From Lingula anatina (lineage: Eukaryota; Animalia; Brachiopoda), in contig CM120640.1 of NCBI GenBank assembly GCA_051362555.1, forward strand, positions 1,426,001-1,490,000: a DNA stretch of 64,000 bases, read 5' to 3'. Of this stretch, positions 581 through 50,500 are shown piece by piece. The notes beneath the pieces were generated by a model. The model saw only the letters and a program-made list of their open reading frames with translations, had not been told where the DNA came from and made no database searches. A program made the position numbers and the translations under genes. The number at the start of each line of letters is the position of its first letter. Position 1 is the first letter of the stretch.

Positions 581-3084
581 GAGAATAAAATACACTGACG
601 TCACACTGTGTCAACATTATAAAGAATTTCGATGTAGACTGTTCCAAATTGCCGAGACCCCATGACTTAAGGTTAGTTGTAATAAAGAAAAAGAAAACAC
701 AAATCTCGTTGCCTGTGCAGGAGGCCCCAGTGTAATAGCGCCTTGGACCCGGCGTGTTCGATACGTTTTAAGAGCACTTGCGGTGCATATAAAACCAAAT
801 CGCAGGCGTTTTGATGAAACAAAATCATTGACTTAGTTTGTTGCCAGTTACAAAAGAACCAAAACCTAAGACAGTCAGAATCAAACCTATGGTGCAGACG
901 TCATTAATCCACTCAGGAACAATGAATTAAGCCCCGAGCTGGGTGGTTGGACTGTATGCTCACATAACGAAATGGTCGTCCTAAGCCATCATCGGCCATG
1001 TAACCTTTTGCTTGGTTTGCAGTGTCAGTCTAGTGTTCCCTTATTTTCCAGCAATAAAATAATACCTCATGTTTCGAAAGGCAACAAATAACCATTGCGT
1101 TAGAGAAGAAAAACGCTATTTCTGCTCACATGCATTGAGCGCAATCATCCTAGATAAGGCAAAACCTAGTGGCTTAGCGTAAGGTCAAGCGATATTTCTA
1201 GAGATTTGTAGGAGAGTGAGGTCAGAAATAAAGGCAGACTAGCAAGTATTTGAGACTAAAGCTGACACTGGATTTTATTCCCTGTAGTTCTGTCAAAATG
1301 CAGCACAGCACGTACAGTGCCAATTCAACGTGCTTTGCGTGTGGTTTTCTGTATTGCTTTCTAAGCTAACATTCCCGTCGTATAGAGTTTCACTTGCAAA
1401 GTTCACCTCACCGGATTCACGCACGGTTTCCTATCTCGTATGACGCAAGACTGACTTTATGCAATCTAGGCTTATTTCCATTTTAAAACTAACTACTGTT
1501 GAATATCTTTCATTATGTCTGATGTAGAGACAGAATACAGAAAGCACAATTTGGGTACAGTTTTAATTTGGGGGTACTATTTTGCGGGGTTGGAAATCCA
1601 GCTTAGACTTCTGAAATCGCATTTCTGGTGACTTAAAGTCAACTTTGTGAAAATGGTTTATGAACGGTCCACCCACTGTTAATGACGCTGCCATGCTTGC
1701 ATGTAAAACTTGGTCGTAAAACAGAAGAACAGAAGAATATATGAGTTGTGTTCAGTAACCTAAAGACGAATGCAAACCTCCCCGTGTAAACCGGTGTTAA
1801 CAATACAATGTGGTAATCTCGGGTAAAGGCCTTTGCTGTCCTAGTGTTACCGCAGATAAGAAAACTAATGTCGTTATCAGGAATAAATGCTTTGCGGTTG
1901 AGGTGAGAAAAAGAAAACAGCTGTCTGCTATCGAGGAGATGCCTTTCATAATGGCAACTTCGGTTCTTTGGCATGTTATTTCTTTCCTCTGTTCCTGTTT
2001 TTCGAGCAGGCTTTGATATACCTGAACGCTACTTTGGCAACCAAGGGCCACAAGATAAATCCGTCTTCATTGTGTTTTATTAATTTTAAAACCCTTATCT
2101 CATCTTTTTTTCTGCAATAGGACACTTATTAATTTGCAACGGTAACCCGCAAAATCTTACGTAACTTACACTAACTCCTCCCCGACATAAACGTTCTTCA
2201 TTCTGGATGTGTCGGGAATATAAAAAACGAGCAATTTTTGTCATATTAATGGTAAATTTTATTTTGGAAAATTATCTGTTCTGAATGCATGTCCAGAACA
2301 ATATATAAATATATTAGTGTGCTTATGCCCCTAGTCTACAGCGACTACGAATTTCACGAACCGTTTGAACTGATAAATTTTAGAAATCGTGGGGAATTGT
2401 GGAATTTTGCACATATCTGGTAGAAATCTTGTCCCTGCTTAACTTCCGAAATGGATGTTCAGCATAGAGCAGCTATACAAACAGCTATACATTCACTAAT
2501 CATGTTAGATTGTTATCCTTTTTGAAAGCAGGCAGCGCCGCCTACAAGAGATAATTACAGCACGCGGTAGACAGCACGCGGTGGACATTTGACACGTCGG
2601 ATTTTAGGGGGTACATGTAATAAATGTGAATAAATGATATTAAATATTGATATCTTCACCTCTAGTTTGTCTTTTCTGTTTCACTAATCATGTTAGTTAT
2701 GGTATCTGTAATGAAAATCACTATTTATAACAATTTTCACTTGTGATGTGATCATTTATAAATAAAAGCACATGATACTGGAGGTGGGACAACCTTTTTG
2801 ACCAATGTTGTAGTACTGCTCATAGAACTGGCATCAACTGGTGATAAATAGAAGACTGGTTCCAAACTTTTGTGCCGATTTCACGATCTCTCAAAAATTC
2901 CAAGAACTGGCTGAGAATAAATAAAAATCAGTTAAAAGCTTAAAGAATTTATCACTATTGAACTAATAACACTGGAATTTATCAATCCTTGGGTTCGTGG
3001 AATTCGTAGTCTGTGTGGAATATGTGCAATGGGAGGTAGAGCAGAGACAGACGACGGACATGTAAATCATCATCATCATCATCA

Positions 3085-5492
3085 TCATTTAGAGCCTATA
3101 GTGTTCCACTGTTGGACAAAGGCCTCAGCATGCTTTTTCCATTGTTTCCTATCCTGAGCCTCAGATTTCCAGTTTGGCCAAGGTTTCTTCTTCCAAGACT
3201 TCCAGTAATCATCTAATTCATCCCTCCATCGTTTGACCGGCCTTCCTCTTTTTCTTTGTCCATACCTTGGGGTCCATTCTGTAAGCCTGATTGTCCACCT
3301 ATTGTCCTTCATTCTTTTGACATGTCCTGCCCACCTCCATTTCATTTCTTTAACTGTGAACAGTACGTCCTTAACTTTGGTCTGTTCACGTAACCATACA
3401 TTCGTTTTCCGCTCTCTTGGACTGATGTTCAACATAATTCTTTCCATCTTTCTCTGAGCTACTTGTAGCTTCTGTTCCATGGAGGCATTCAGTGCCCAGG
3501 TCTCTGAACCATAGGTGATTGCCGGGAGCACACAAGCATTGAACACTTTCTTTTTCAGGCAGGTAGGAAGGTTGCTCTTGAAGATGTCATTGTGCTTCCC
3601 ACATGCTGCCCATCCTGCTTTTATCCTTCGTTGGATTTCTTTCTCCAGTGTTCGATCACTAAGGCTGAACCGTTGCCCAAGGTATATATACTCTTCTACT
3701 GCTTCTATCTCTTTGGTGTTGACCTTCACTGTGCAAGGGGTGGTTAGTGGTCCAAACATCACCTTTGTCTTGCTGGTGTTCATCTTTAGCCCACTTTTTG
3801 CGCTTTCATGTGCTAACGCCTGTAGCATTTCTTCGAGGTCTTTTGCATCATCTGCTACTATTATGATGTCGTCTGCAAACCTAAGGTGATTGAGCCTGGT
3901 ACCGTCTATGTTTATGCCCTTGTCCTGCCAGTCTAGATCCCTGAATATACGTTCCAATGCTGCTGTGAACAGTTTAGGAGAGATTGTATCTCCTTGGCGT
4001 ACTCCTTTCTTGATCCTGATCTTATTGGTGGTCTTGTGTAGTTTGACTGTTACAGAGCTATCGGTGTATATGTCTCTGAGGACGTCTACGTATCCATCTT
4101 CGATCCCTAGATCTTGCAGGGATGCCAGTATATACTGGGTTTCTACTGAGTCGAAGGCTTTTTCATAATCAACGAATGCTACACATAGTGGAATGTTATA
4201 CTCAAGACATTTCTCTTTGAGCTGGTTGACAGTGTGCATATGATCAGTAGTGGTGTACTGGCCTCTGAAACCTGCTTGTTCCTTTGGCTGCGCTTCATCT
4301 AGTTGTCTTGTTAGCCTTTCGGTCAATATTTTGGTGTAAATCTTGTACAAATTAGAAAGTAGGCAGATGGGTCTGTAATTCTTGATGTCTTTCCTATTGC
4401 CCTTTTTGAACATTATGATCATGTTGGCGTTCTTCCATGCTACAGGAATTTTCTTCAGATTTAGCACTTTGTGAAGAGCCTGGCTAATTCCTGAGATGGG
4501 ATATCTCCTCCTGCTTTTACCATTTCTGCTTTGATGTTGTCATTTCCTGCTGCCCTTCCGTTCTTCATTTTCTGGACTGCTGACTCTACTTCCCAAGCTG
4601 TTATGTCTGGTAGATCGCATGCCTTTGTTGAGATTTCTATTCCCTTGTTGCTGTCATACAACTCTCCATAGAATTCTTCTACTCGTTCTAATATCTGGTC
4701 TTGTGTGGTGAGCTCATTTTCATCTTTGTCTAGAAGAGTCAGCATTCTATCCTGCCCTAGTTGAAAGGATCTCTTTGCTCTTTTCATGCTCTTTCCATTT
4801 TCGATGGTCTCTGCTATCTTCTTCATGTTCTGCTTCCTGATGTCTTCCCTTGCCTTCTTCTTGATGGTCTTATCCGGTTCTGCATATTCGATGTTGTTTC
4901 TGATGTCCCTGTTGTTGTTTACCTCCATTTTCTTCATCATCCGTCTTTTCTTCATGAGAATCCTCGTTTCTGTTGAGAGCTTTGAGTCCTTCATTTTACT
5001 GGCCGGTGCGACTTCTGATGCACATTCTAGGATGGTGGTCGTTATTCTATCGTTCATTTCATCTACTCCATCTTCACCTTCTAGCTCTAGTGCACTGAAT
5101 CTGTTCGTTAGGAGGATTTGGAACTCGTCTTTCTTTATGACCAGTTGCTCGATACTAGGTCTCTTTGATGGATTTGACAGGCATTTCTGTCTGTCCTTCC
5201 TGACATTGATCCTAATCACTCCCATAACTGCTCTGTGGTCACTGCCCGCATCCATCTGTTTAGCACTTTCACATCCGTGAAGATGTTCGGTCTGTTTGTC
5301 ATGATGTAATCAATTTCGTTTCTTGTACATCCATCTGGGCTTTGCCATGTCCATCTTCTTGATATCTTCTTCTTGTAGACGGTATTCATGATCTTCAAGT
5401 TATTTGCTGTCGCCCATTCAATCAGTAAGTCTCCTCTTTCATTCCTCCCTCCACTGCCAAATTTCCCTGTGGCACGCTCTTGTACATCTGAC
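3085..5492 (-). pseudogene. RTE ORF, C-terminal part (end of APE endonuclease, linker, reverse transcriptase), frameshifted
   Basis: Motifs GKFGSGGRNERG, WTWQSPDG..NEIDYI, SDHRAV, NYRPICLL, QAGFR, FVDYEKAFDSV, GVRQGDTISP, LRFADD, YIYLG. Frameshifts near 5255 and 4465 split it into ORFs 5216-5398, 4461-5255 and 3085-4467. Confidence 0.95.
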
Positions 5493-5498
5493 TAATTT

Positions 5499-5571
5499 GA
5501 TGTGATGGCCTAGTGGTTAGCACGCTTGATTCGGGTGTGAGGGGTCCCGGGTTCGAATCCTGTAGCCGCGA
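5499..5571 (+). promoter_or_regulatory. tRNA-Pro(CGG)-derived head with internal Pol III promoter at the RTE 5' end (not a functional tRNA)
   Basis: A box TGGCCTAGTGG 5506-5516; B box GGTTCGAATCC 5550-5560. TTCGGGTGTGAGGGGTCCCGGGTTCGAATCC closely resembles the eukaryotic tRNA-Pro anticodon loop, variable loop and T arm. The acceptor stem does not pair. Confidence 0.85.
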
Positions 5572-5863
5572 TTTATCATTCTGGTAAACATGTAAAACCA
5601 GTACTACCTGTATCATGGTCAGGACCCGTAAGCTTTGAACAGCAACCTGATTAGGAGTTACACAAAAAAAAACCTACTGCCTTAGTAGCAAAAATCCAGC
5701 CGGATCATAAGGCTAGCGGAGAAAAACCGTATACAAACAGAGGGCAGGCAAAGCTCTTTAGTGTGTTCACACAAGTTTGCCTAGGAATAGTGTTGCCAAC
5801 TTCAACACCCTCTCCCAACCCGCAATGGCCAGCGTGGGATGAGTAGGCCTAAAAAATTCCAGC

Positions 5864-6927
5864 ATGAAACGACCAACAAACACACGGCCCCCAGTACCCA
5901 GCCGCACAAACGCCCTGAACTTAGGAGGTGATCCTGGTTCAGACCAGCAGAGTGCAGGAGGTGTTAAGAATCTCTGGGGCAGCAAGGATCACCGAACACC
6001 AAGACCAGTGAAAAATTTCAACATCATTGTTGTCGCTTATGACAACAATTTGCGTTTACAATCGTATCACTAGTCAGCTTTGTATTATTATGCAAATCAT
6101 TTACTCTGTATATATACTGTATGCAGCAGTTCTGGGCGCGGCCACGTTGTATTTGACGAGCGAAGGCTCAGGTCGCCGAGTCTGAAGTTTTAGTAGGCAA
6201 AATTTGTGGATCAACATTTGGACGGGAAAGCCACATTTCTCTGTACGTATTGTATTCAATTCTATTGTTAATCATTTGCACAACATTTCCGTTTCTTATA
6301 ATTAATTTATTATTTCTTTTTATATTTGTATTCAATTTATGTTATATTTGTGTATTTTGTATAATTAGTTTGGTATTTATATTTCATTATTTTGTTATTT
6401 TTAGTTTCACCATGTCCATGTCAGTGTGTGCGTGAAATAAAGTGTGAACATTTCCCGTCGTTTGTTTGTTTGGTGTGGGATCCGCAACAATCATTACTTA
6501 CAACATTAGAACTCTGAAGAACAATGAAAGACTTGCAGAATTGGAAACTGAACTCCAGGACACCGGAGTTAAATGGCATGTGATAGGCTTGTCAGAAGTT
6601 AGGCGAGCGGAAGAACGCTTAATTACCTTGAATAGCGGACATATATTGTACCATACAAATGCTTCAAATGGCCAACAAGGAGTTGGATTTCTGATACACA
6701 AGGCGCTAAGCAAGAACATCATCGAGGTAAAGCAAATTAGCGCAAGGGTGGCTACAGTCAAGCTCAAAGTGAATCAGAGATTCTCAATGAATCTCATTCA
6801 GGTATATATGCACCAACATCAAGCAGACCAAATGAAGAAGTAGAACAACTGTATGAAGAAGTACAACGTCAGTTGACAACAGACTGCCACTACCACATAG
6901 TCATGGGTGATTTCAACGCCAAGATCG
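5864..6927 (+). pseudogene. RTE ORF, N-terminal part (APE endonuclease), interrupted by a solo LTR
   Basis: ATG at 5864 (MKRPTN...GGVKNLW...NFNII). Removing 6028-6494 restores the in-frame NFNIITYNIRTL, followed by IGLSEVRR, GVGFLI, QVY(APT, 2-nt frameshift near 6805) and IVMGDFNAKIG, which ends at the TSD. Confidence 0.92.
6028..6489 (+). mobile_element. Solo LTR (462 bp), BEL/Pao-like termini
   Basis: Ends TGTTG...CAACA; 5-bp TSD ATCAT (6023-6027, 6490-6494); TATA-like run near 6109 and AATAAA near 6436; precise removal restores the RTE reading frame. Confidence 0.88.
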
Positions 6928-7504
6928 GGACATGTAAACAGCAACAGAAAATTGCAATTACAAAGTAATAAGAACATTTAATTATGGCCCCCATCGTAAA
7001 CCAACTGAAATAAAGAGGGGGTACGCCAGCGCGTGGCATCAAAATACAATAAAATATTCATAATAGACATGCTGTTGTCTACTGGCGGTGACGTTCTTGT
7101 AGCAGTGGTAGTGCAGGCAGTTGATGGCTATTACACTTCGTCGTGGTAACACAAAGTCACGACAGGGTCACAGTAAATTCCATAAGTCTGCAATTTTAGG
7201 GTTCATAGTATATTACATCATTTCTGTAATAATGATAATAATAATTATCTATTTATTTAGTGTTTGCCTCGTCACCAAATTCTTAAAAACTTGATAAAAC
7301 ACTGAAACTCTCCTTAAACGATATTTATTTTGAGTATTCAATTCGACATTAGTTTTGCACGTTAAACTTAGATATATTCATGAATATTTTCTTATTCATA
7401 AATATGTCGATAATTTTTACTTTAAAATATAATTTTATGAGTCTACTTAACGTTTTATGGATTTTTAACACTAGATAAATAGATAATTATTATTATCATT
7501 ATTA

Positions 7505-9106
7505 CAGACTTGACATTTAATATGGAATATTTCAGATTCAAAGGTATACCTTCGTAAAAATGCGTTCTTTTTTCAAAAATCTCAGATCCCATATAAGATA
7601 TCTGATTAGACAAGTGTGTCATCGAGTGTGTCGCTACCAATTAACTGACTACTATGTCTGTCGCACTGCTACACTGTGTAATATGCAGTGATTTAATTAG
7701 GTAGTGCGCTTTTTGGCTGGCCAAAGTTTGGCTTTGGCGAAGCATGGTTCTGTCAGAAAAGTATCCACATGTCGGCAACTACTGCATCGAAGATTTGAAA
7801 TTCTGCATGCAAGTGGTGGGTTTTGCAGTGCGTAAAATGAGTTAAGCAGTGTTTTACAAAATTGTTTATCTGTGCCAGAATGACGCAAAAGAGACAGACA
7901 TTGCTAGATAGATTATTGTGTCACACGGAATGGTCCTCACAGTTTTATAGAATTATGCCCAGACTGATGTACCTACACAGAGACCACACCCAATGTATCG
8001 AAATCTTACCACCAGGGTACAGGACTCACTGTCCTTCTGGATATGTTGCTGCACCACCCAGTCCATTCACAATGATGGGCAAATTGCCACCAAACCGCGT
8101 TTTTCAAGACTCTTAGCGAACACCAAACTGGTTTCAGCAGGTAAGAATACCAGACGACCTCTGGGGAAGCCACTGTAAACAGCAAAACAGTATCGTCTGT
8201 TTCTCTAATAAATTGGGGACCATGACTGTTTCTGAGTAGAACACTGAAACCGCGTGGCTTTCTTTATTGAGGTCAGATTTCACCTGTACCGCTCAACTGG
8301 TCAAAACAGAGTTTACAGACATCCTGATAGGCATACGACGAAGCGTGTGCCGGGTCTGAAGAGACTGGGGTTATTGACACGTCAGTATTTGATGCCACAT
8401 CAGTGAAAAAAAAATAATGATAGTCATGGATGGAACCCGAACCAGATCAAATAAAAGAATAATCTAGGAACTAATGTGGTATCATTTGATAGGGAGCAAC
8501 TTAGGAGCAATTTTCACACAAAGTACTTTTAATAGCAGATAATTACAGAACCAAGGGAATGAGCTGCTACATTGGTCATCAAAATCGCCATTTTTGAACC
8601 ACATAGACAATATGTGGGTAGACCATTACTCGCCGAATCAACGGCCTGCATGTTCTACAACAAAACTGAACCAAATTGGACAGGTTTTGACTGATGCCTG
8701 GAATTTTATAACAGATAAAATTCTAAAAACCTATCCCAAGGAATGCTTTGCCGCTTGAAAGCTCTAGTAGCAACCAGATGAGGTCAGGCGTTACAGCGAC
8801 CGATGCTGTGACTAGACACTGACATGAGGGTCCTTTTTGGGGCGTGCAACTCTTTTAAAGACGATAATTAGGAAAATATGGAGATCCAAAAGTGGTTGCC
8901 AAATGACTTGGAAAAGGCAATCCATTTTTGTTTGCTTCACTGGCGAATTCAGTTAATGGACTGATGTCACAATGACATCAAATATATTATTAAAAATTAT
9001 TAAAACACGATTTCAATCCTTATTTTCATTTATCAGTCAGCAAAATCGGAAAAAACCTGATGAAATTTTATTTGGAAAAAATGTTCCATATTAAATGTCA
9101 AGTCTG
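7505..9106 (+). mobile_element. Decayed Tc1/mariner DNA transposon with transposase relic
   Basis: 23-bp TIR CAGACTTGACATTTAATATGGAA at both ends; TA TSD (7503-7504, 9107-9108); relic motifs WSSKSPFLNHIDNMW at 8573-8617 (cf. Tc1 WPSQSPDLNPIENLW) and RLKALVATR*G near 8752; many stops and indels. Confidence 0.88.
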
Positions 9107-10908: not shown

Positions 10909-11479
10909 ATCAACAAGGAGACATACATACGAGTTTTGTTTTCTCGATTCAATGTCTGTGGAAAAAAAAATTTTTGACCAGTTTGAACGATGGGAATAAA
11001 TGTTGTTAGGTCTTAGAGTTCAATGGTTTTCGATATCTACAAAGGATTAAATCATTTGTGATAACAAGCCGACCATCGGTGTAAGCATTTCGTATTTCCT
11101 AATAAGGACCACGTTAAACTCTTTTAGATAAATACCAAAAGACACCATTTCATATTACCTAAAAGTGATATTTGAACGGATTTTTTCTGCTTGATTTCTG
11201 TGCTGTACACAAACGGGGCAGAAAAGTCGGTCAGATAATAAAGTTAAATTTAAGACCAAAAATGTGAAAAAGGTGCAGTTTAAAGCTCTTTTATGGCTGA
11301 TCGTGCTATTAATTCGGTTTCTCGCTTGGCATTTCGACTTTATTTGTGTTGTTTAAGAAACAAGTAGCAGTGGTGTATATGAGTAACTGGGAATCCACTG
11401 TCCACCGACGCTTGGTTCAAATGTACCTTTCATAAATGAATGCAACACAAAACTTGAAGATCATTTTGAAAATTAATTA
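10909..11479 (+). repeat. ~570-bp dispersed repeat, copy 1
   Basis: Near-identical to 12889-13467 (starts ATCAACAAGGAGACATACATACGAG, ends TTTTGAAAATTAATTA). Confidence 0.95.
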
Positions 11480-12095
11480 TTCCGACCAAAAGAGCAGATC
11501 TTTGATAAAAAGAACCCCCTCCGCCTGTTGACAGGTCCGTCGCAGTTCAGCACTTTTTCTCTCTTTTTACTACCTCAAAAAAGAAAAGATTTTTGTATTT
11601 CTGTATGTTTTGTCAAGTTATCTAACTTTAGAAGGTCTTTAAATTAAACGATAGCACATTCTTCACAGGTGTCAGAAATTAAGTGTTTAGCATGCCTACC
11701 TGCCATTGTGATGATGAATAACAATATACACCACAGTTACAAATCAATGCCTTCCTAAACACTACTGCACGATTCTGGTTCTTATGATTAAACAGTACTT
11801 AAGGGTCACTTATCACACTGATATTATTTATGAATGGTTCTTACTTAAGTCAAGATACCTTGCAGACTGAGTAATTGATTGATCTATGAATAGTCTCATG
11901 AGATTTGGTGAGTGTGACATTAACGAGCACGAAATAGATACTTGGCGTACGTCTTTGTTTATATTAAACCTGTAAACCTTTTCATTCCAGATGGTGTTGC
12001 GGCAAAAGTTAGTGTACAACTTTTTTCTCTAGCAGAAGATCAGTTTGCTTGCCCAAATTTCTGCCTAAAGGTCTTTGTAAAACTTTTCATTTCAG

Positions 12096-15056
12096 ATGCT
12101 GTTGCGGCATAAAATAGTGATAGCTTTTTCTCTACTTCTAATAATCAGTAGTCTGTGTAAGAGTCACGCTTGTGGAGATAACCCCATGGTAACCGTGAGG
12201 ACTTTTGCTGCAAAAAAAGGTAAGGATTTTTATTCTTCTTCAAAGCAATCAACTGCTGGTGCACTAATGCGTGCATTTGAATTAGAAATTGGTTTGTCTG
12301 TTTTGTCTCTGAGTTCACATTGTTACATACAGTGTAACTTGAGATCATAAGGAACAGAGTAGGCCTACATTTCATTTGCTAAATGTGCAGTAAGCCCACT
12401 CTTAATGCCGTATACCGCAGCATCAAATCGTACAGAATTTAATAGACGCGTTGGTCAAAAATTTGGCGTTTTACATAAAAATATGATTGGTCTGCACACT
12501 AGAGATATATTAAAATTGATTACCCTACTAAAGAATGGATTGATAAAAAAGAAATCGTAGTAAAACAACCCACTGCAAAAGGACAGATCACGTGATCTGT
12601 GACGCGATACTTGCTGACGTGCACCAAGCAGCTAGCATAAGGTGTAGGACCAAACTGAAGGTAGAAAAGGTGTGTTCTTTGACGTTAAGACACTGAAAAA
12701 ACACCTGGGCCCCGTAACTCGAAAGCATCGCGCATTGCGACCGAGCGCAAGCGTCTCGATTCCATAACTTGCCCATACCCGCCATATATAATACACTGTA
12801 GTCTCTATGTGATATCGCTATTGGCGATACGCGATGTTTTTGAGTTATGGGATCCTGGGCGCCTGCAATTAAATATTTCTTGAAAAGAATCAACAAGGAG
12901 ACATACATACGAGTTTTGTTTTCTCGATTCAATGTCTGTGAAAAAAAAACAAACTTTTGACCAGTTTGAACGATGGGAATAAATGTTGTTAGGTCTTAGA
13001 GTTCAATGGTTTTCGATATCTACAAAGGATTAAATCATTTGTGATAACAAGCCGACCATCGGTGTAAGCATTTCGTATTTCCTAACAAGGACCACGTTAA
13101 ACTCTTTTAGATAAATACCAAAAGACACCATTTCATATTACCCAAAAGTGATATTTGAACGGATTTTTTCTGCTTGATTTCTGTGCTGTACACAAACGGG
13201 ACAGAAAAGTCGGTCAGATAATAAAGTTAAATTTAAGACCAAAAATGTGAAAAAGGTGCAGTTTAAAGCTCTTTTATGGCTGATCGTGCTATTAATTCGG
13301 TTTCTCGCTTGGCATTTCGACTTTATTTGTGTTGTTTAAGAAACAAGTAGCAGTGGTGTATATGAGTAACTGGGAATCCACTGTCCACCGACGCTTGGTT
13401 CAAATGTACCTTTCATAAATGAATGCAACACAATACAAAACTTGAAGATCATTTTGAAAATTAATTAATCTAAACAAATACATTGTTTAGCTGGCAATGC
13501 TGCGTTCATAAAGATTTATTGAGCCGTCATTAATCACTTGTAATGCGTTTCCAAACACCTTACTGGTGAGCTCAATATGACGACTCAAGGAGATAACTAA
13601 TTTGATGACAACGACAAGCATCCCTCAGACATAACGAAGAAGGTGCATTATTTTCAAAGCTGGATATCTACAAAACAGAAACCCAATTTGCATATTTTGA
13701 ATCTATGCTTGGACAAGTTTTCTGAAATATACACGCCACCCGTTATTCGATATTTCACTCACGCTAATACATGATATTGCCAATGACATATAACGTTGAA
13801 TGTTTTAAATAGAAGTTTGGTATATAAAAACGATCCTTGACTTACACAATGTCGAATTAAAGGTTGTAGGTCTACTATACATACACGTCGACGTATTTTT
13901 ACTGGGCCTTTTGGTTGCATTGACAGTATGAAGAAACCTTCTAACCTTTGCCGATGTGTACAAGTGGTGATACATGTAGAGTCCGGTTCTCATCTCACCA
14001 TCTCTTGTCGTCACGATCTCTTGACACGAACGCCGTCGTGCGCAAACATACCTGTAAATTGACGCAGTGTCTTAATGTCAGTGCGTTTTTCACGTATGGG
14101 TGAAAGATGGAGATGAGTTAAATTGGCAATATTTCGAATGCTGACGAACTCGAACACACGCTCGCGCGGGCACTCACGCACACACACAACACACACAAGA
14201 AAAAATATTAAGGGCACATCATCTTAGCGTGTTATTGTCTCAATCTCGAGTTACTCAATTCACAATGATATTTCCCAATTTAAACCTCGTTCCAAATCTA
14301 AATAGAATGCAGAATTGCATAAACAGAGGCAAACATAGGCAAGCCAACTCTTTTTGGGACAAATTTATTTCTTTAGCATAACGACCTTTCTACAGAATCT
14401 TATCTGTATTGTAAGATAAGAAAAAGAACTCAAACAAAATTTCAATTTTTGATTTAAAAATAATAAATCGATTAAAGATAAATATTCTATCATTAGTTAG
14501 ATATAAACCCCAAATAGTTTTAAAATGCATTATGTATACCTCCATATATGCAGAATCCCTTTAAAAGAGAAAGAAACAGTTTCCTGCTCAACAAAAGAAT
14601 AAGAAAGAAATCAAGAAATTGAAAAAGACAGAAAGAAACGGAGAATACATTCTTTGATGTCATTTCCGTTCCTGATTTAAAACAAAAAAAAAAAAACTTT
14701 CTGTCGTCAGCTTTCAGTTATTAAAGTAAATCATCAAATTCTAATAAGGCCTTCCTTTCTATAATCTTCTAGGTTTTACTCAACAGTACGCCATGCAGTG
14801 GCTGCGGGAGAACTACGCTCGTATGTACGAGGAAGTGATGAGTCGATACGAGGACTATAAGAACTGTGTCGCTATGGTAGATACCGGCTATTTTAAACGA
14901 GAGCACCCGGAGAGAGGGACAGTGTACGGCACAGGACGCTTCCAAGTGGCGTATAATACCGCCATCACTGGCTACAGGGAACAAGGTAGCAGCAAAGGCT
15001 TCTGGGAAGGTACATATAGATTCAAGGATAAATATAGATATGAGATTAAAAAGTAA
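12096..15056 (+). CDS. Unidentified 135-aa secreted protein or putative peptide precursor; coding exons 12096-12219 and 14773-15056
   Basis: tttcag|ATG; hydrophobic signal peptide MLLRHKIVIAFSLLLIISSLCKSHA; phase-1 donor G|gtaagg at 12220 joins acceptor ttctag|GT at 14773 in frame (AAKK-G-FTQQYAMQWLRENY...). Confidence 0.75.
12707..12855. mobile_element. Short MITE; inverted relative at 55346-55497
   Basis: Imperfect TIR GGGCCCCGTAACTCGAAA / TTTGAGTTATGGGATCC; the interior matches the reverse complement of ~55440-55497. Confidence 0.65.
12889..13467 (+). repeat. ~570-bp dispersed repeat, copy 2 (intronic)
   Basis: Direct repeat of 10909-11479 with only a few substitutions and indels. Confidence 0.95.
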
Positions 15057-25285: not shown

Positions 25286-27001
25286 TTCATATTTCATGAA
25301 ATATTGGTTAGGAAGGCAATTGTGAACCATAAGGGGGGTGGGGTCTCAAAGAAGGGTATTAAAATTGCCCCTTTACTGAACTCTTCCCATCTAAATTTTG
25401 ACCCCCTGTATAAAGTAAGTTCAGAATGGACAGGAGTAGAGTAGAGGAAATACCACCCCTGAACAAAATTACACATATATATATAATTTCAGGAAAATAT
25501 TATAAGGTTTTTGCCTCACAGTTTGCCCCAATTCATTTCTCTTCCTTGGTATTGTGTAGAAGACCTTCCATAGACCCCCCCTAAGGTTACAACATTTAGT
25601 AAGAGATTTCATTGGAGTGCATTCTGGACAAAATTAAATGGGAATCCTCTGAGATGGCAACAAGTCTGGCATCTTAGTGTATCTCAGAAGATTTCCATTA
25701 CTGTAACAATGAGTTTTAGTAATTGCGTTTGTGCCATAACTTTACTTTAAGAAATGTGAACTTTACAACGTGCAAAAAGTTTCAGGAAGACTGGGTAAGA
25801 CTGTGAAATACTATTATATGAAATACTATACTGTACGCAGTAGATCAAAATGTCGTAGAAGACTGGAGACTGTGGCAATAATATCCATGGCTTGTTCCCT
25901 GTAGGTGAAAAGGTGTAAGTTATGCTCAAATTTAATCTGCATTTAATCTTCCTTAGAAATGCTAGAAGCAACTCTGTGACAGTGACTGTATAGTATTTGC
26001 TTTAATAAGTTTTATCATTCTTTGTAAGCGTACAGAAATAAATATGACCTATAAGCAAAATTTCAACAAAACTTGGAATACCTTCAAAGGATAAAAGTAT
26101 TATGTAGGTGACTGTGTAGAAAGTGCCAAGTTGTAAACAAAGAAACAGTTAAAGTTGCCTGAAAGTAGCCCATGAAATGCCATGATTTACTCATTTCTTG
26201 AAACCCTTTGTTTAAACTAATTTAGAAAAAAAAAACTTTTGGCATTCACCGACATGCAAAGGAAAAAATTGAACTGTATCCACTATCAAAACTAAAAGGG
26301 GCATGATGTTTGCCATTAATGTAAACTTTTTAGGAAGGCTTTCACATTTAATATGGATCATTCCTGTTTTGGTATACTTTTGTTATTTACTTTTTGCAGT
26401 ATACTTGGGACAGCTACCCACAAATGTAAAATATTTACATGATGTGAAGGCATTGACTTCCAGGATTAGTGTCTATTAATTGAATATTCTCTCATCTGAA
26501 AATGTGATATTGTGTAGTTATTTTTCTTTTGATAACTAAATGGTAATTATATTAGATACTTGGGGTAGATGATTTCTACTAAATTTGAAAATCTGTTAAG
26601 AGATACTGCTTTGTGTATTGAATGTGTAAGAATATTTTCTTAATATCAAACATTTTGTATTTGTGGTAAATTCTCTGCTGGTTAATTCAGCTTAAGACTA
26701 TAAGGAAAACTGTAAATTTGTGATGTCTTTTTCTTAATAGTGAACAGATATATAATCATTATTAAAGTAAGTCTGCATACTATTATATGTAGTTTTTTAT
26801 CACTGCAGCATGACCAACTCACCACCATTACTGCCTATAGAGAAATTGCATCCCACCTCCTCCTCCTTCCCCTCTGTTTAAATTCTCTCTCCAGCCAAAT
26901 CTTGAAGTCAAGGAAGCATCATGATACCCCCATGGTTTATACATGATTTCAGTTCTTGAAATTTATAAAGACATTGCTTTTAATGCCTATAAACACAAAT
27001 G

Positions 27002-30000
27002 AAACAAGGCAGCAAAGCTGTCAAATGTACAGACAAAAAGCAGGAAATAACAAAAAAGGCTACTGTCAATTCTGATGCAAAAGTACATTTTGTTAAACTG
27101 CAAATTCAACATCAAATTTTAATTATGCTCAACAGGTAAAATACATCTGTGTCTGTACATAAAAACGGCATTTCTTTAAAATAATGGCCCGATTATGCTG
27201 ATTTTTGAACTCAACCTGCGATTTAGCAGGAATGACCACTCCTGTGAGTTTAATGACAATTGGCCTATATGTTTTTCTTATATTGTGTTTACAGTGTTGC
27301 ATATATGCTGAAAAGTGAAAAAAAAAGCATAACTACTAAAATAGTGGCCCGATCATGCCGATTTTTGAACTTGACCTGCGTTTTAGTAAGATCAATTACT
27401 CTGCATTTTAGTCCTGTATTTCTTTTTGAAAGTTTGACAATCATAAGTAACATGGTTTTCCCATAATGGTCATCTTGGCAGCAGCACCCAAAATTGTGTT
27501 TTCTTCTATTCTGATGCAATATTACATAATGGTTAACAGCAAAATGACCGTTAATTTTTAATAATAAAATACACGTATCATGGATTTTCAGAAAATGTGA
27601 CTAGCATGGGTCTTCAAGCCCGTGGAACATGCCGATTTTCGAACTTGACCTGTGTTATAGTAAGATCAATTACTCCTGTGATTTTCATGACAACAGGCCT
27701 AACGGTTTTCCTTAAAATGTGTTTACAGTGTTGGATATATGCTGAAAAGTGAAAAAACAGCATAACTTCTACAATAATGGCCCGATCATGCTGATTTTTT
27801 AACTTGACCTGCGTTTTATGAATATTCATCAGCTCTGTAAATATACAGCCAAAAAGTAAAACTGCCTTCCACTTATCATGTTTACAATGAAAGTGCACGG
27901 TGTCGGCACCGGCGACGACGGCGACGACAGACGCAGGTGATGGCAATATGTACAGACACATCTGTACATATTTACTGTACTGTTTGAGAACAGTAAGTGA
28001 CATGGTTTTTCTTAAATGGTCATCATGGGAGCAGTGCCCAAAATGGTTTTTTTTCAAATTTTGATGCAATATTACATAATGTTTAACAGCATAATGACCA
28101 TCAATTTTTAATAATAAAATATTAGTATCATGGATATTCAGAAAATGTGACTAGCAAAGGTCTTCAGGCCCATGGAACTTCAAAGTTACAACTTGAAAAT
28201 GCCAGAATGTAAACAAGACAGCACTGTTCTGAAATGTTTTTTTTCTTTCCATTTTTAACACTTTTTTTAACATAAAACAAAATTAACAGGTTACTGCCAT
28301 TTTTATACGATCAACTAAGAAAATTGATGAGATGGGAAAAATATCAATACAACAGTGTTAAATGTCCAATTTCCTCCATTCTGAGATTCTGAACATAGTG
28401 AATGATTGAATCTGACAAACTGCAATGATATGAGTTTATTTCCATTTTGGAAACTTTATTACACAATACACGATAACAAGTTTACCATCATTTTTACATA
28501 ATCAACTAACAATGTTGTAAAGATGCAGGAAATGTCAAACAAACACTTTTACGTATCTTATTAGTTCATTAATGAGACTGTTAACATGCCTAACAGTTGA
28601 ATCTGAGGAAATTTGAAAAAACAGCATAACTTCTAAAATAATGGCCCGATTATGCTGATTTTCGAACTCAACCTGCGTTTTAGTAAGATTGACCACTCTT
28701 GTGAGTTAAATGACAATTGGCCTATCTGTTTTTCTTATATTGTGTTTACAGTGTTGTATATATGCTGAAAAATGAAAAAACAGCATAACTACTAAAATAG
28801 TGGCCCGATCATGCCGATTTTCGAACTTGACCTACGTTTTAGTAAGATTGATTACTCCTGTGAGTTTCATGACAACAGGCCTAACGGTTTTCCTTAAAAT
28901 GTGTTTACAGGGTTGCATATATGCTGAAAAGTGAAAAAACAGCATAACTTCTACAATAATGGCCCGATCATGCTGGTTTTCGAACTTGACCTGCGTTTTA
29001 TGAATATTCATCAGCTCTGTAAATATTAAGCCAAAAAGTAAAACTGCCCTCCACTTATCGTGTTTACAAGGAAAGTGCAAGGCGCCGGCATCGGCATCGG
29101 CGACGGCGACGACAGACGCAGGTGATGGCAATATGTACAGACACATCTGTGTCTGTACATAAAAAGTTAGGGCACAAAGTTCTGTAGAACAGTGGAAGAG
29201 CATATCTCTGGAGTGTTCAAATCCAATCCCAAGGACTTGTGCCAGTTATAAATCCAACACAAAAGCAATGAGGTGGATAAATATATATTTCCATTAACAG
29301 GCTTCCTCATTTAATAATACAATTAAATGAGTTCTTTATTATACATTAAATAATGGCCTATCATGCCTATGTATCGAAAGCACTGCACTAAAAAGATCCA
29401 CTGTAAAGTTGTGAGCAAGTGCAGGTTCAAACAATTCAATCTGAAGGAATATTAAACAAATTCCTTCTCTACACAAACATTTTTTTTAGAAAATGTACTT
29501 GGTGCTTAATATATTTTCTAGAAGTAATTAATTTGCGAAAAATGTCTGCATTTTCTACTGAAATGTGCACATGATACGACATAACTGTGCAATCTTTATA
29601 ACTATGTCTGCATCAAACAGAAACAAGGCAGCAAAGCTGTCAAATGTACAGACAAAAAACAGGAAATAACTATGCACAAAATAGGCTACTGTCAATTCTG
29701 ATGCAAAATTTTAATGATTGAATCTGACAAACTGCAATTATATGAGTTTATTTCCATTTTTGAAACTTTATTACACAATACACGATAACAAGTTTACCAT
29801 CATTTTTACATAATCAACTAATAATGTTGTAAAGATGCAGGAAATGCCAAACAAACACTTTTACGTATCTTATTAATTAAATAATGAAACTGTTAACATG
29901 CCTAAGAAATGAATCTGAGGAAATGTGAAAAAACGGCATTTCTTTGAAATAATGGCCCGATTAAGCTGATTTTTGAACTCAACCTGCGTTTTAGCAGGAA

Positions 30001-32954
30001 TGACCACTCCTGTGAGTTTCATGACAATTGGCCCATCTGTTTTTCTTATATTGTATTTACTGTGTTGCATATATGCTGAAAAGTGAAGAAAAAAGCATAA
30101 CTACTAAAACAGTGGCCCGATCATGCCGATTTTCGAACCTGACCTGCATTATAATAAGATCGATTACTCCTGTGAGTTTCATGACAACAGGCCTATCAGT
30201 TTTCCTTGAAATGTGTTTACAGTGTTGCATTTATGCTGAAAAGTTAAAAAACAGCATAACTTCCCTTAAAATGGCCCGATCATGCTGATTTTCGAACTTG
30301 ACCTGCGTTTTATGAATATTCATCAGCTCTGTAAATATTAAGCCAAAAAGTAAAACTGCCCTCCACTTATCGTGTTTACAAGGAAAGTGCACGGCGACGG
30401 CATCGGCATCGGCATCGGCGACGACAGACGCAGGTGATGACAATATGTACAGACACATCTGTGTCTGTACATAAAAATGTGACTAGCAAAGGTCTTCAGG
30501 CCCATGGAACTTCAAAGTCACATCTTGAAAATGCCAAAATGTAAACAAGACAGCACTCTTCTGAAATGGGTTTATTTCCGTTTTTAACACTTTTTTAACA
30601 TAAAACAAAATAAACATTTTACTGCCATTTTTTTATGACCAACTAAGAAAATTGATGAGATGAGAAAAGTATCAATAGAATAGTGTTAAATGTCCAATTT
30701 CCTCCATTCTGAGATTCTGAACATAGTGGATGATTGAATCTGACAAACTGCAATGATATGAGTTTATTTCCGTTTTTGACACTTGATTACACAATACATG
30801 ATAACAAGTTTACCATCATTTTTATATAATCAACTAACAATGTTGTAAAGATGCAGGAAATGTCAAACAAACACTTTTACGTATCTTATTACTTAAATAA
30901 TAAGGCTTTTAACATGCCTAAGAATTAAATCTGAGGAAATCTGAGGAAATGTGAAAAAACAGCATAACTTCTAAAATAATGCCCCGATTATGCTGATTTT
31001 TGAACTCAACCTGCGTTTTAGTAAGACTGACCATTCCTGTGAGTTTAATGACAATTGGGCTTTCTGTTTTTCTTATATTGTGTTTACAGTGTTGCATATA
31101 TGCTTAACAATGAAAAAACCCGCATAACTACTAAAATAGTGGCCCGATCATGCTGATTTTCGAACTTGACCTGCGTTTTAGTAAGATTGATTACTCCTGT
31201 GAGTTTCGTGACAACAAGCCTAACGGTTTTCCTTGAAATGTGTTTACAAGGTTGCATATATGCTGAAAAGTGAAAAAACAGCATAACTTCTACAATAATG
31301 GCCCGATCATGCTGATTTTCGAACTTGACCTGCGTTTTATGAATATTCATCAGCTCTGTAAATATAAAGCCAAAAAGTGAAACTGCCTTCCACTTATCGT
31401 GTTTACAAGGAAAGTGCACGGCGCCGGCGACGGCATCGGCATCGCCATCGGCATCGGCGACGACAGACGCAGGTGATGGCAATATGTACAGACACATCTG
31501 TGTCTGTACATAAAAAAAGCATAACTACTAAAATAGTGGCCCGATCATGCCGATTTTCGAACTTGACCTGCATTTTATGAATATTCATCAGCTCTGTAAA
31601 TATACAGCCAAAAAGTAAAACTGCCTTCCACTTATCGTGTTTACAATGAAAGTGCATGGCGCCGGCGACAGCGACAGTGACGGCAACGACGGCGACGACA
31701 GACGCAGGTGATGGCAATATGTACAGACACATCTGTACATATGAACTGTACTGTTTGAGAACAGTAAGTGACATGGTTTTTCTTAAATGGTCATCATGGG
31801 AGCAGTGCCCAAAATAGGTTTTTTTCAAATTTTGACGCAATATTACATAATGTTTAACAGCATAATGATCATCAATTTTTAATAATTAAATATTAGTATC
31901 ATGGACAAATAGTAAACGTGACTAACAAAGGTTTTAAGGCCGATGGAACTTCAAAGTCACACCTTCAAAATGCCAAAATGTAAACAAGACCGCACTGTTC
32001 TGAAATGGGTTTATTTCCATTTTTAACACTTTTTTAACATAAAACAAAATTAATAGGTTACTGCCATTTTTATAAGATCAACTAAGAAAATTGATGAGAT
32101 GTGAAAAATATCAATAGAACAGTGTTAAATGTCCAATTTCTTCCATTCTGAGATTCTGAACATAGTGAATGATTGAATCTGACAAACTGCAATGATATGA
32201 GTTTATTTCCATTTTTGACACTTTATTACACAATACACGATAACAACTTTACCATCATTTTTACATAATCAACTAACAATGTTGTAAAGATGCAGGAAAT
32301 GTCAAACAAACACTTTTACGTATCTTATTACTTAAATAATAAGGCTATTAACATGCCTAAGAATTAAATCTGAGGAAATCTGAGGAAATGTGAAAAAACA
32401 GCATAACTTCTAAAATAATAGCCCGATTATGCTGATTTTCGAACTCAACCTGCATTCTAGTAAGACTGACCATTCCTGTGAGTTTAATGACAATTGGGCT
32501 TACTGTTTTTCTTATATTGTGTTTACAGTGTTGCATATATGCTGAACAATGAAAAAACCACATAACTACTAAAATAGTGGCCCGATCATGCTGATTTTCG
32601 AACTTGACCTGCGTTTTTGTAAGATTGATTATTCCTGTGAGTGTCATGACAACAGGCCTAACGGTTTTCCTTTAAATGTGTTTACAAGGTTGCATATATG
32701 CTGAAAAGTGAAAAAACAGCATAACTTCTACAATAATGGCCCGATCATGCTGATTTTCGAACTTGACCTGCGTTTTATGAATATTCATCAGCTCTGTAAA
32801 TATAAAGCCAAAAAGTAAAACTGCCTTCCACTTATCGTGTTTACAAGGAAAGTGCACGGCGACGGCATCGGCATCGGCATCGCCATCGGCGACGGCGACG
32901 ACAGACGCAGGTGATGGCAATATGTACAGACACATCTGTGTCTGTACATAAAAA
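27002..32954 (+). mobile_element. Compound array of non-autonomous Helentron-type (HINE/DINE-like) elements containing ~159-bp satellite monomers
   Basis: Left ends AACAAGGCAGCAAAGCTGTCAAATGTACAGAC (~27003, ~29622); monomers with GAACTTGACCTGCG spaced 159-160 bp; (GAC/GGC/ATCGGC)n microsatellite followed by the palindrome ATGTACAGACACA-TC-TGTGTCTGTACAT and an A-run at ~29133, 30445, 31484 and 32922 (truncated versions at ~27143, 27948, 31719). Confidence 0.82.
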
Positions 32955-34039
32955 GACACTTATTTGTTTTAAATGTACTTACATCTCAGTAGGAATGACA
33001 CATTTATTTTTGTTACATGAACAATAGCTGCACTGGAAGTTTTAGGCTCCCCACACCAATAAAGAAGGTATCTAGAGACCCCCTTTGAATGACTTGACAT
33101 ATAACAGAAAGGTGGAGAAAAAAAAAATAAACGAAAGAATTTCTGGAGCACATATTGGATTTTCCTATAATTAGGTCACTGATGCAAATAAAAGTTTGTT
33201 AAATAATCCTTCAGAAACATAAGGCTTGAAATTAAAGAAATGAATAAATGAAAAGAAAATAGTAAATGTCACCAACTGACTAGTAGTTAACATTAAATAA
33301 ATGGCACTGCCATTAGTTTCATTTCACTGAACAAACTTAACAAAATGGTGTGACACTTATACACCTAACAAAATTTTACTTCTACTTTCACATAAATAAT
33401 TGGTCAATTTTTCTTCATTTTTTTGCTAATAATTGACAACACTGTCTCTCTTTTACTAGTACCTATTTTTGGATTTAAAAAACCAAATCCAACTGAACTA
33501 AATTAATAATTTAGTTTTTAGTCTTTAACATTTAGCTCTCCCTATTCTGGGAAAATCAAACACTAAGACATAGATGTACACACCATAAAGCAACCAATTC
33601 CTGAGTTAGCACTGAAAACTAGTTCACTTAAAAAGAACAGAGGCCAAAAAAGAGAACTACCATAAGTTATTTGCAAAACTAAATGGAAAATATACAAAAG
33701 GAAATAAAAATAACAGAAAAACTGAAAATAATGTATTACAAAATTGGGACACGACCAGAGTAAAAATTTATAGGTAAAAGTTCCACATTTAAGGACAATC
33801 TCAAAATATCACTCATCTTTGTGCCTTTTAACATGGCATTGAAGAACTATGATCTTACAGTTTGTTTAAGAAAAGATCTTTTACTTCCAATCTATTCAAG
33901 TAAAGTATAACTGGATTATAAATGCTGTACATAAGCAATTATGCAGGATAATGAGATGTGGCCCACACATTATAACATCCAAGCAGTAGTCTGTCTAAAA
34001 TACGGTTTCCTCAAAACATAGAGGCTGTACTGGATAGCG

Positions 34040-47509: not shown

Positions 47510-50500
47510 TGTATGTATGTATGTATGTATGTATGTATCCAATACCACGTCTCTCTCTACACACCCTGAGCTTCAGAGATAACTTGACACTAACCTCTTC
47601 ACTATAGCCTATCTTCATCGTGTCAAGTTACCTCTGACCACATTCGATTGCCTCCGCCGCCCGCCAATCAAATTTAAAGCCCGCACTCAATGACTCATTG
47701 AACGATCTAGCCAATGAACGCGAACGAGTCAAAGCGCGCTTTGTTCAAATCCGGACCAATCAAAGATAAGGCTGAATATCAGGGACTTGCCGTAACCTGT
47801 GGGCAGCACGCAAAATACATCATCCCTCAGTAGATAATTATGCAGGGCATCAAACTGCTCTGGTTTCAATTCCGATATACTCCATGCTTTCTTTGTGCAC
47901 GGTTATGCACTCGGAACTACTCGGATGTCTCCGCACTCGACAATAACTATGTTGTTAGTATGGAGCTTGCGGAATCAGCCGAGGATTACCGATTGACGGT
48001 CAACCAATCAGCGTTTTCACCAAACTTTGGTGAAAAATTTTGAAACATGGATTCGATTGGCTTATATAAACTAGGTCAAACTATTTTCGTCAGAGGTAAC
48101 TTGACACGATGAAGATAGGCTATAGTTAAGAGGTTAGTGTCAAGTTATCTCTGAAGCTCAGGGTGCTCTCTACACCTCCCACTAGAACATTTATGTCACT
48201 AACAACATGCACCGATTCCTCACACGGATCAATAATATGCTTCCAGAAACTGGCTCTCCTGAATAATATCAAGACTAAGATCTATCTTACTATTATATGT
48301 GAAAGAATTTGCAGGGAAATCTAGGGATATAAATGGCTTCATCTGAAAATTGAGCTGCAATTCCTTGCTGTGAATCAGCTATCTGCATGACAACCATGCT
48401 GCTATATTCTTTTATCTAACAAGATCAATAGATGTAATAAGGAAATCAGTCTACATCAGCTCTGTTTGTAACCACACGAACGTCAACTTGATATCAGGCA
48501 TTGAATTTTTTTCTATTGGGCTATTATTTATCCCTTTTAAATTGATATGTGAGATCAAATCATCTCGTTTTTATTCATCAAATTCAAGAGGTATATTAAT
48601 GTGGGTAAGCTGGTATTTTGCAAAAAAAAAAAAAAAAGGATCCCTCACAATATCATTCTCATGTAAGATTTAAAAAGTAGGCACTTGGTTAAATTCTAAA
48701 TATTATATATTATATCAAAGTCATACCAGTATATCATATCTTGTGCATAATGGCACTCCAATGGAGCATCATTCTTACCAACAAGAATGAGCATTCATTT
48801 TGGGATCAATTCAATCAGAGCAAAATTGTTCATTAGCTTGGTGGTTGGATCATCTGATGAAGGCCTATGACCATATTGGCTGCAAGCCAACAGCAGGAAG
48901 AAAATGTTAGCTTGTGCTAAATAATTATCATCTACAATTTAGTCTGATTTGGCTAAAATGCTTGGTTTCCAGATTGGAGATTCTTCCATCCCTTGGCAAA
49001 GCTTTCAACAAGTCAGATCATCAAGATTTAAATAAACGCTCAAGTAAAACTGCCCCAGGAAAGGTGGCTGACCAAATTAACATTGATTATTTTCAGGTGC
49101 ACAAAGTAAGGAACTTTGGCATAAACATGTGTAAAGAAAAGTATTCACTAACATATCAAACATTTGCCATATTGCTGCGCACTTTTAGAATAAAATGTTG
49201 GTTTGGTTTAAAAGAAAAAAAATCTGAGACATCAGAGCCCAGGAGCTAACATAAAAATATGTAGGTGAGACTCAATGAACAAAATGTTGGGTTTAGTTTA
49301 AAAGAAGAAAAAAAACTAGGAAAAATTCAAGCCAGAAGCTAACACAGCAATATATAGACTTGTGAGTGTCTGCCAAGAATGGGTACTTGATGCACATACC
49401 CCCCACATCCTCTACACTTCTCTAGAAATAGAAATAACTTGGGAACACCTGAAAATGGTACAAAAACATTGTGCAGAAGTCTTCCACTAAGCACAGGTGG
49501 TGGGATGGTTCATGATATGCCATAATAAACTATGCTTGGGATCCTCATTATCACCTGAGCTCCGTCCAACCAAGATAAATCCAAAGACCGGAATTTAGTG
49601 AAAGTGCACTAAAACTATTCCACCTGAAGATGTACCAGGTTGAAAATAAACAAACTCTCATTGTTGTCGTCGTGGTCGTCTAAAACTTGTCAAACATTTT
49701 CAAAATAAACTGCCCATAGCAAACTAATGGCATCACTCTGCTGCAAAAACATCTCAGATATGTTGCAAAATAATGTGACAGTCACACACCTGGGTAACTT
49801 GAATTAAGCCTGCCAGAGTATCTATTACTGAGTTTAAAGAAATTAGTAATTATCAGATTTCCTTGGATATTTTCTAATAATAATAAAATTAAAAAAAAAA
49901 AAACCTGCTGTTCTCAAATACCCAGGTATTAAATGCCTTATGTCAATATCATAGCTATACCATGGCAGTTTATTCTTATTTTATATCTTTTTTATTTCAA
50001 AGCTTATCTTATAGACTTTAGAACAACGTAGCCCATAGACAGTTTTTTCTGCTCATAGTATAGACTTTCCCAGGGCCTCCCCAAGCTCTCTAACCCCAGC
50101 CAGGGCCTCCCCAAGCTCTCTAACCCCAGCCAGGGCATGCCTTGTCATAAATGTCAAGATTATTTATGAGAATTTTTCTTCATAACCATGAATTTAACAG
50201 TAAGCACATGGTCTACAGGTAAATACAAATCTAATGGAATGGAATCTACAGGTGAATTACCATATTATTACTGTTACATTACACTGAGATTATCTGGAGA
50301 AATCAGAACAGTTACTAGTAGGAGGAAGTTGTAGACAACTGTGAACAAGGCTAATGATGCTATTTGTGGACATTTGACTTATGCAGCCATTAATACTGTA
50401 AACTATGTTTTTAAATCTCACTCAGAGCTCTGAGCGAAATTGAGCTTTAAAAATATATTTCAGAACAGAATGCACACAAAGAAGCAGAAAAAACTTTGAG

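Follow-up and report, generated by a model that had tools for sequence, protein, structure and literature searches.

Among described retrotransposons, the RTE-type long interspersed nuclear elements (LINEs) HmRTE-e01 and BmRTE (Tay et al. 2010, PMC2887409) have, in the excerpts of that paper available, one open reading frame (ORF) of about 990 aa encoding an APE endonuclease and a reverse transcriptase (RT), a length of about 3.3 kb, a 5′ untranslated region (UTR) of a few hundred nucleotides, a 3′ UTR that is very short and has a microsatellite tail, and many 5′-truncated copies. Within a 64,000-nucleotide stretch of Lingula anatina DNA (contig CM120640.1, positions 1,426,001 to 1,490,000; the whole stretch analysed is hereafter called the window), the feature at 3056–6938 is a degenerate copy of an RTE-type LINE of this kind with a single ORF, unlike HmRTE-e01 and BmRTE in having a tRNA-like head and a sense strand free of runs of four or more T (T4); the excerpts of PMC2887409 hold no mention of tRNA. 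Judged from sequence comparison, the pairing of head and T4-free sense strand is genuine and is met again in other RTE lineages, with a signature that is specific and asymmetric between strands. We consider it fairly probable that RNA polymerase III (Pol III) makes the full-length RNA of active copies, which would likely be translated cap-independently through a pseudoknot. With roughly even confidence, we further propose that several RTE lineages each exchanged their 5′ module for a tRNA promoter independently of one another, yielding autonomous coding Pol III retrotransposons with a 3.3-kb uncapped RNA, a clade-wide pseudoknot for translation and a selection against terminators that would have reshaped both codon use and the endonuclease motif.

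The split into LINEs transcribed by RNA polymerase II (Pol II) and Pol III-transcribed short interspersed nuclear elements (SINEs) is stated as a rule in the available parts of three papers (PMC10886601, PMC5786205, PMC2666806), of which PMC5786205 treats autonomous LINEs as Pol II units. A tRNA head, RTE 5′ UTR sequence and an RTE tail are combined in the bipartite-RTE SINEs CoeSINE4, SINE2_Gav, SINE2-1_EC and HaSE1 (PMC5786205), which are short and non-coding, whereas the window LINE has a whole ORF between these parts. RTE-1_DAn and related elements contain tRNA-like sequence (Kojima 2018, PMC5786205); in the available text this piece is mentioned once, as a source of matches to discard, with its position, promoter and terminators undiscussed, and its likeness to the window element is by description only. 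Translation of LINE protein from uncapped RNA via a 5′ structure resembling an internal ribosome entry site has a precedent in R2 and L1Tc, which carry ribozymes like that of hepatitis delta virus (excerpts of PMC6765202); cap-independence is a prediction for the window element, and R2 differs in being an RNA polymerase I co-transcript that is freed by self-cleavage and has no tRNA promoter. The TRIMp3 elements Cassandra, Helenus and Ajax are retrotransposons with the small-RNA-derived Pol III promoters that we predict here, and differ, as described in the same excerpts of PMC10886601, in being non-autonomous, non-coding long terminal repeat (LTR) elements of 0.3–1.3 kb. In the open-access literature, as far as its text was available, no author was found to propose an autonomous LINE transcribed by Pol III, terminator avoidance in RTEs or the start-proximal RTE pseudoknot described below, though subscription journals, Repbase and the 2018 supplement may contain such a statement; PMC13343379 mentions neither tRNA nor Pol III nor a promoter.

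Read in its sense direction, the window LINE lacks T4 throughout. There is no A4 run on the + strand of 3067–5498, where the sense strand is the minus strand, and no T4 run on the + strand of 5499–6027 or of 6490–6929, while 20, 6 and 0 such runs, respectively, stand on the other strand of these segments. The solo LTR inserted at 6028–6489 contains five T4 runs on the + strand, and such 4-nt runs average about 10 per kb per strand over the window; an earlier note on this DNA, which had described a T4-free element amid run-rich flanks and LTR, is borne out by these counts. No A4-free stretch in the 64 kb is longer than that at 2938–5593, the runner-up measuring 745 nt. The element is thus a sense strand without an internal run of at least four T, as is expected of a Pol III type 2 unit. 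Since that strand is 18% T, a fair null is weaker than the comparison with the window mean: synonymous codon shuffling, a check that the earlier note had proposed and that gave a modest result, leads to an expectation of 2.7 runs against 0 observed (p = 0.045), and redrawing third bases from T-neutral contexts to an expectation of 3.2 (p = 0.023).

The head lies at 5499–5571 on the + strand, and its A box (5506–5516) and B box (5550–5560) agree with the consensus for such boxes. ARAGORN and the Rfam tRNA model did not detect this segment. With a covariance model for which one tRNA gene and four tRNA-like segments from other loci, but no window sequence, served as input, 5499–5571 on the + strand was the sole match in the 64-kb window (27.7 bits, E about 5e-7, a rough value); the scores of L002, L015 and L035, whose pieces are part of the model, are circular. 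Alignment of the head with a tRNA-Pro(TGG) gene, which was picked by a Pro-shaped pattern and thus confines the comparison to the Pro isotype, gave 55 matches in 88 columns, best near the anticodon and T arms. The earlier reading of a tRNA-Pro-like head with both boxes is upheld by these matches, as is its leader of ~290 nt: the leader between head and start codon, at 5572–5863 on the + strand, is 292 nt long and T4-free, with the ATG at 5864. Head, leader, tail and LTR each occur just once in the 64-kb window.

Related RTE loci were collected with the endonuclease alignment as query, which fetched 89 loci (79 metagenome, 9 genome-bin and 1 viral); the viral locus was weak (26% identity), and a further search of viral contigs returned none. 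Three named Sphingobacterium loci and other matches below 30% identity were not used, and L024 was left aside because it nearly duplicates L023. Four further long RTE loci, L002, L015, L003 and L014, carry a tRNA-like head immediately 5′ of the ORF. The head of L002 retains a tRNA fold and reaches 30.8 bits with the Rfam tRNA model, above gathering; the L003 head is partial and is found again in L035, a partial locus of the L003 family from a second data set. At least four copies join head to ORF start in the host-contaminated bin behind L003, and since heads recur in further RTE lineages and among several copies of a single family, the design is not a one-off, an outcome that the earlier note had raised against itself. 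In the no-head loci, the covariance model found nothing 5′ of the ORF, even with filters off, and low-threshold ARAGORN on the fetched loci gave mostly noise.

For comparison of T-runs, the headed pool comprised five elements (window, L002, L003, L014 and L015) and the no-head pool ten loci without a detected head. Kept out of both were L004 and two 5′-truncated members of the L003 family, L005 and L006 (0 and 1 T4), together with L027, L029, L031, L044 and L081, whose 5′ ends were missing or not examined (7, 3, 3, 7 and 3 T4); L035 (partial, 1 T4) was counted only in the headed pool of the third-position and codon-usage analysis, which therefore has six headed rows. The loci L002–L007 (G001–G003) are animal-type RTE LINEs with microsatellites in bacterial genome bins, presumably host contamination. 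Three ~100-bp tandem repeats lie upstream of L004, at 3120–3450 of that locus, and may be another 5′ module or host DNA.

T4 avoidance accompanies the head in this sample. The ORFs of L002, L003, L014 and L015 have 0 T4 each, and the coding blocks of the five headed elements have 0 in 14.2 kb against 9.0 expected, compared with 94 in 28.1 kb against 86.1 expected for the ten no-head elements; equal depletion in headless RTEs, which the earlier note had given as grounds for abandoning its idea, is absent. Among synonymous sites at which a T would give rise to T4, T is chosen at 0 of 57 sites in headed elements (0 of 17 in the window copy) versus 138 of 322 in no-head elements, or 56 of 177 when the latter are limited to the six loci with at least 300 nt upstream (p about 2e-8, sites treated as independent). 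Codon usage behaves in the same way: in the six headed rows TTT makes up 0.14 of Phe codons against 0.45 for T at other NNY codons, the corresponding values in no-head elements being 0.50 and 0.56. Because TTT is avoided for Phe and T at other NNY codons is not, the headed T4 absence does not reflect a general lack of T, and a matched third-position null rules out general T-poverty as its sole cause. The run thresholds of headed elements also differ by strand, with 0 T4 versus 112 A4 and 30 A5. AATAAA and splice-like motifs showed no clear difference between headed and no-head elements.

In a FastTree phylogeny of 132 rows, which holds homologues only and has no named RTE reference, outgroup or clade test, headed elements fall into three separate, well-supported subclades: A (window, the L003 family and L004), B (L014 and L015) and C (L002). 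Two Bombyx entries named "endonuclease-reverse transcriptase" in this tree are presumably BmRTE. The heads differ from one another. As the earlier note had observed, the usual endonuclease motif NTFFKK reads NTVYKK in the window, and the loss of FF holds at clade level: FF is replaced, by varied residues, in 6/6 clade A and 13/13 clade B database proteins and in all four headed elements with a readable motif (NTMF in L002), and is kept in 60 of 84 other database proteins.

Six ATGs precede the start codon within the head and leader of the window copy. A conserved stem-loop at 5812–5850 on the + strand, ending 13 nt 5′ of the ATG, pairs through its loop with a downstream strand to form a pseudoknot. 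This stem-loop is common to all 16 aligned RTE leaders, headed and headless (window 5812–5850; L002–L034). Covariation comprises 18 two-sided changes versus 8.5 in shuffles (0/500), although the structure was read from the same sequences and slid controls therefore favour it; loop pairing scores 4.4 within a leader's own sequence against 3.4 across leaders (0 of 20,000 permutations, 11 lineages). In 13 of the 16 rows, the partner strand of the loop lies 8–20 nt 5′ of the following ATG. A fixed reading frame from pseudoknot to start codon was ruled out by this 8–20-nt spacing and by the three of 16 rows without an ATG after it. We infer a putative internal-initiation element; alternatively, the pseudoknot could be bound by the element's protein, and it may correspond to the stretch of conserved RTE 5′ UTR that is present in HaSE1 and similar SINEs. 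In L016 (336–344) and L017 (497–505), an in-frame ATG overlaps the 3′ strand of the pseudoknot, and the usual N-terminal extension is missing.

Taken together, these features suggest the following course. Pol III and TFIIIC would use the A and B boxes of the head as promoter and transcribe active copies end to end, over about 3.4 kb, with termination at the first T-run in flanking DNA; selection would act against T4 in the element, as any such run would truncate the RNA. This uncapped RNA would be the template for reverse transcription and, probably, the mRNA as well, with cap-independent initiation guided by the pseudoknot before the ATG. The window copy itself would have been inserted by twin priming, a process that yields an inverted 5′ layout with a short overlap of element and duplication, the inverted piece running towards the 5′ end of the RNA. 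The head sits precisely at the 5′ terminus of the inverted piece, which ends 5 nt past the first base of the head, and both boxes are intact; if the twin-primed piece ran to the RNA 5′ end, the head would mark the RNA start. Pol III RNAs retrotranspose with ORF2p alone (PMC2666806, in the part available), a requirement that would suit a LINE without ORF1.

Copies and transcripts in Lingula anatina were followed in public reads of the same organism. DNA depth in run X1 was about 12 on the head, 4.1 on the flank and 52 on the endonuclease, and in run X7 about 126 on the head and 402 on the endonuclease, which suggests, if the flank represents single-copy depth, roughly 3–4 headed copies versus about 12 with the endonuclease 5′ half. 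Read depth also indicates many 5′-truncated copies of the family, and such truncation fits a head depth of about a quarter to a third of that of the endonuclease; the low head depth rules out an abundant young SINE bearing the window head at 88% identity or more. Within an X7 contig, a second, rearranged copy joins head to endonuclease sequence (joint 5565 to 6743). Reads link 6930 to 5493 across strands in 2/2 DNA runs and 1/2 RNA runs, and 6022 to 6490 in 2/2 DNA runs and by a single read in one RNA run; inversion and LTR are therefore private to the window copy, the others being collinear and LTR-free. RNA reads on the element numbered 67 and 141 in two runs, with a profile flatter than DNA depth, and they keep element polarity on both sides of the inversion and so derive from collinear copies; no start sites were seen in these two RNA runs.

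Several observations weigh against transcription by Pol III. T4 absence in the window copy is by itself only modestly beyond chance (p = 0.02–0.05). L004, a member of clade A like the window element, lacks T4 once an insertion is set aside (p = 0.16 when taken singly), and no head was found in it, a plain exception that a recent 5′ swap would explain; L013, in which no head was found either, has 2 T4 against 6.4 expected (p = 0.024); and the L014 head is weak (E 0.12–0.26) and contains a TTTT at 141. Headed elements are depleted not only in T4 but in A6 and longer runs (2 versus 15.4 expected), in A4 (112 versus 134.5) and in G4 (17 versus 25), and AAA makes up 0.43 of their Lys codons versus 0.70 in no-head elements: some general run avoidance exists, and the long-A-run depletion is confined to headed elements. 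Clade C keeps FF in five of seven database proteins, and two partial clade C loci have 2 and 1 T4. The groups were drawn after heads and T4 counts had been seen together, the synonymous sites are not independent of each other, the headed sample amounts to three lineages, and four of the ten no-head contigs have less than 250 nt upstream. Pol III is moreover held to be limited to short RNAs (PMC10886601, as excerpted). In Lingula anatina, head linkage is only partly shown, by depth arithmetic and the one rearranged second copy; DNA depth dips at 5579–5719 (14 and 29), where RNA reads give zero cover, with next to none on the head; and first mates map to the element's sense strand, an orientation that would denote antisense RNA in the majority of stranded libraries, library polarity here not being calibrated. 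The pairing of head and T4 absence partly supports what the earlier note had proposed, Pol III RNA with selection against terminators, and L004, the TTTT in the L014 head and the A-run depletion count as cases on the other side.

The depletion of A6 and longer runs and of G4, the T4-free L004, the lack of RNA reads over most of the leader and the assignment of LINEs to Pol II (PMC5786205, PMC10886601, in the parts available) would also suit a passenger head, acquired through template switching from a SINE or tRNA, in an element transcribed by Pol II or by read-through whose T-runs were lost otherwise, be it through general homopolymer avoidance, weak rU:dA hybrids in reverse transcription or decay of U-rich RNA. 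We regard this as unlikely. Headed elements tolerate 112 A4 and 30 A5 runs beside 0 T4, a strand difference that replication slippage on double-stranded DNA cannot yield; a cause at the level of reverse transcription should hit headless RTEs alike, yet those sit at expectation; and heads of different origin pair with the T4-free state in three subclades.

Head and T4 avoidance would be explained equally well if the Pol III RNA were a template only, in effect a very long SINE that happens to retain its ORF, with protein made from Pol II RNA bearing a cap, or from read-through RNA, whether of the same copy or of others, and Pol III transcripts are normally non-coding and mobilised by ORF2p alone (PMC2666806, in the same part). 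This seems less probable still, in that L002, L014 and L015 each have one uninterrupted ORF (a single tblastn block), most easily kept if the transposing RNA supplies its own protein, and in that internal initiation would agree with the six upstream ATGs and the pseudoknot near the start. The explanation to which we give least weight, and which we consider quite improbable, makes the head a processing signal at which RNase P cuts the element from longer host transcripts, in the manner of the 5′ ribozymes of other LINEs. The tRNA fold retained by the L002 head would agree with it, as would a weak twister-P1 ribozyme match at the 5′ end of headless L017 (9–64; E 0.003, below gathering), which makes 5′ modules look interchangeable; it leaves the T4 absence unexplained, however, and the window head keeps its boxes yet fails ARAGORN and Rfam tRNA.

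Should Pol III transcription of these LINEs hold true, a natural coding Pol III unit of 3.3 kb would break the LINE/SINE polymerase rule and Pol III would be capable of making a long translated RNA. One internal deletion could then turn such a LINE into a tRNA-headed SINE, replacing a route of deletion followed by head capture. A T4-free ORF, TTT avoidance and a lost FF motif would together offer a marker readable from sequence in any genome, and head plus pseudoknot form a compact module amenable to reporters.

The remaining anatomy of the window copy accords with an RTE insertion. An 11-bp target-site duplication, GGACATGTAAA, stands at 3056–3066 on the + strand and is repeated identically at 6928–6938 (+). 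Next to the left duplication, on the minus strand, the tail at 3067–3087 is (TGA)7, corrected from the (ATG)n of the earlier note, and opens with the stop codon, so that the LINE has no separate 3′ UTR. The 3′ part of the ORF follows at 3088–5493 on the minus strand and encodes the second half of the APE endonuclease (with NTVYKK), a linker, the RT (PF00078, E 1e-34, with a FADD motif) and the C-terminus; its aligned part is 95% identical to P0018, a gene model labelled Lingula anatina in its source that joins a LINE-family piece to an unrelated C-terminal region and is probably an annotation chimera. Five nucleotides at 5494–5498 (+), either 5′ leader or untemplated, form the gap between the inversion joint and the head. 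The ORF start at 5864–6027 (+) reads MKRPT...GVKNLW..., N-terminal motifs common to P0121–P0123, and the first half of the endonuclease, up to GDFNAKIG, lies at 6490–6927 (+) with 68% identity to residues 57–161 of P0121, a protein with the domains PF03372, PF14529 and PF00078; a Pfam search of the window endonuclease pieces taken alone gave no match.

Between these two pieces, the solo LTR (6028–6489, 462 bp, TG...CA, strand not assigned) is a later insertion foreign to the LINE, flanked by a 5-bp duplication, ATCAT, at 6023–6027 and 6490–6494. It belongs to a higher-copy family with a depth above that of the LINE 5′ part, and RNA reads from both of its strands occur in one run. At the inversion joint, element and right duplication overlap by 3 nt (6928–6930). 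The inversion and the solo LTR described in the earlier note are both supported by the read joints, with the break moved to 5493/5494, 5 nt before the claimed 5498/5499; the single endonuclease-RT ORF stands by its domain order, the window copy's own frame being broken by frameshifts near 6803, 5254 and 4461. The element has the RTE hallmarks of a single ORF with APE endonuclease followed by RT and no ORF1, a microsatellite tail and a target-site duplication. Of the SINE2 hallmarks the element has the tRNA-derived head, but it spans ~3.4 kb with an endonuclease-RT ORF, versus 100–700 bp of non-coding sequence, and its classification as a SINE was ruled out by that length and ORF.

Elsewhere in the window, a complex nested-repeat array with units of 160 bp to 1.4 kb fills 27000–33000, and repeats at 10909–13478, 47562–48165 and 7218–7513 comprise a direct duplication (98%, 2-kb spacing) and two inverted repeats resembling miniature inverted-repeat transposable elements, with arms of 89 nt and 47 nt.

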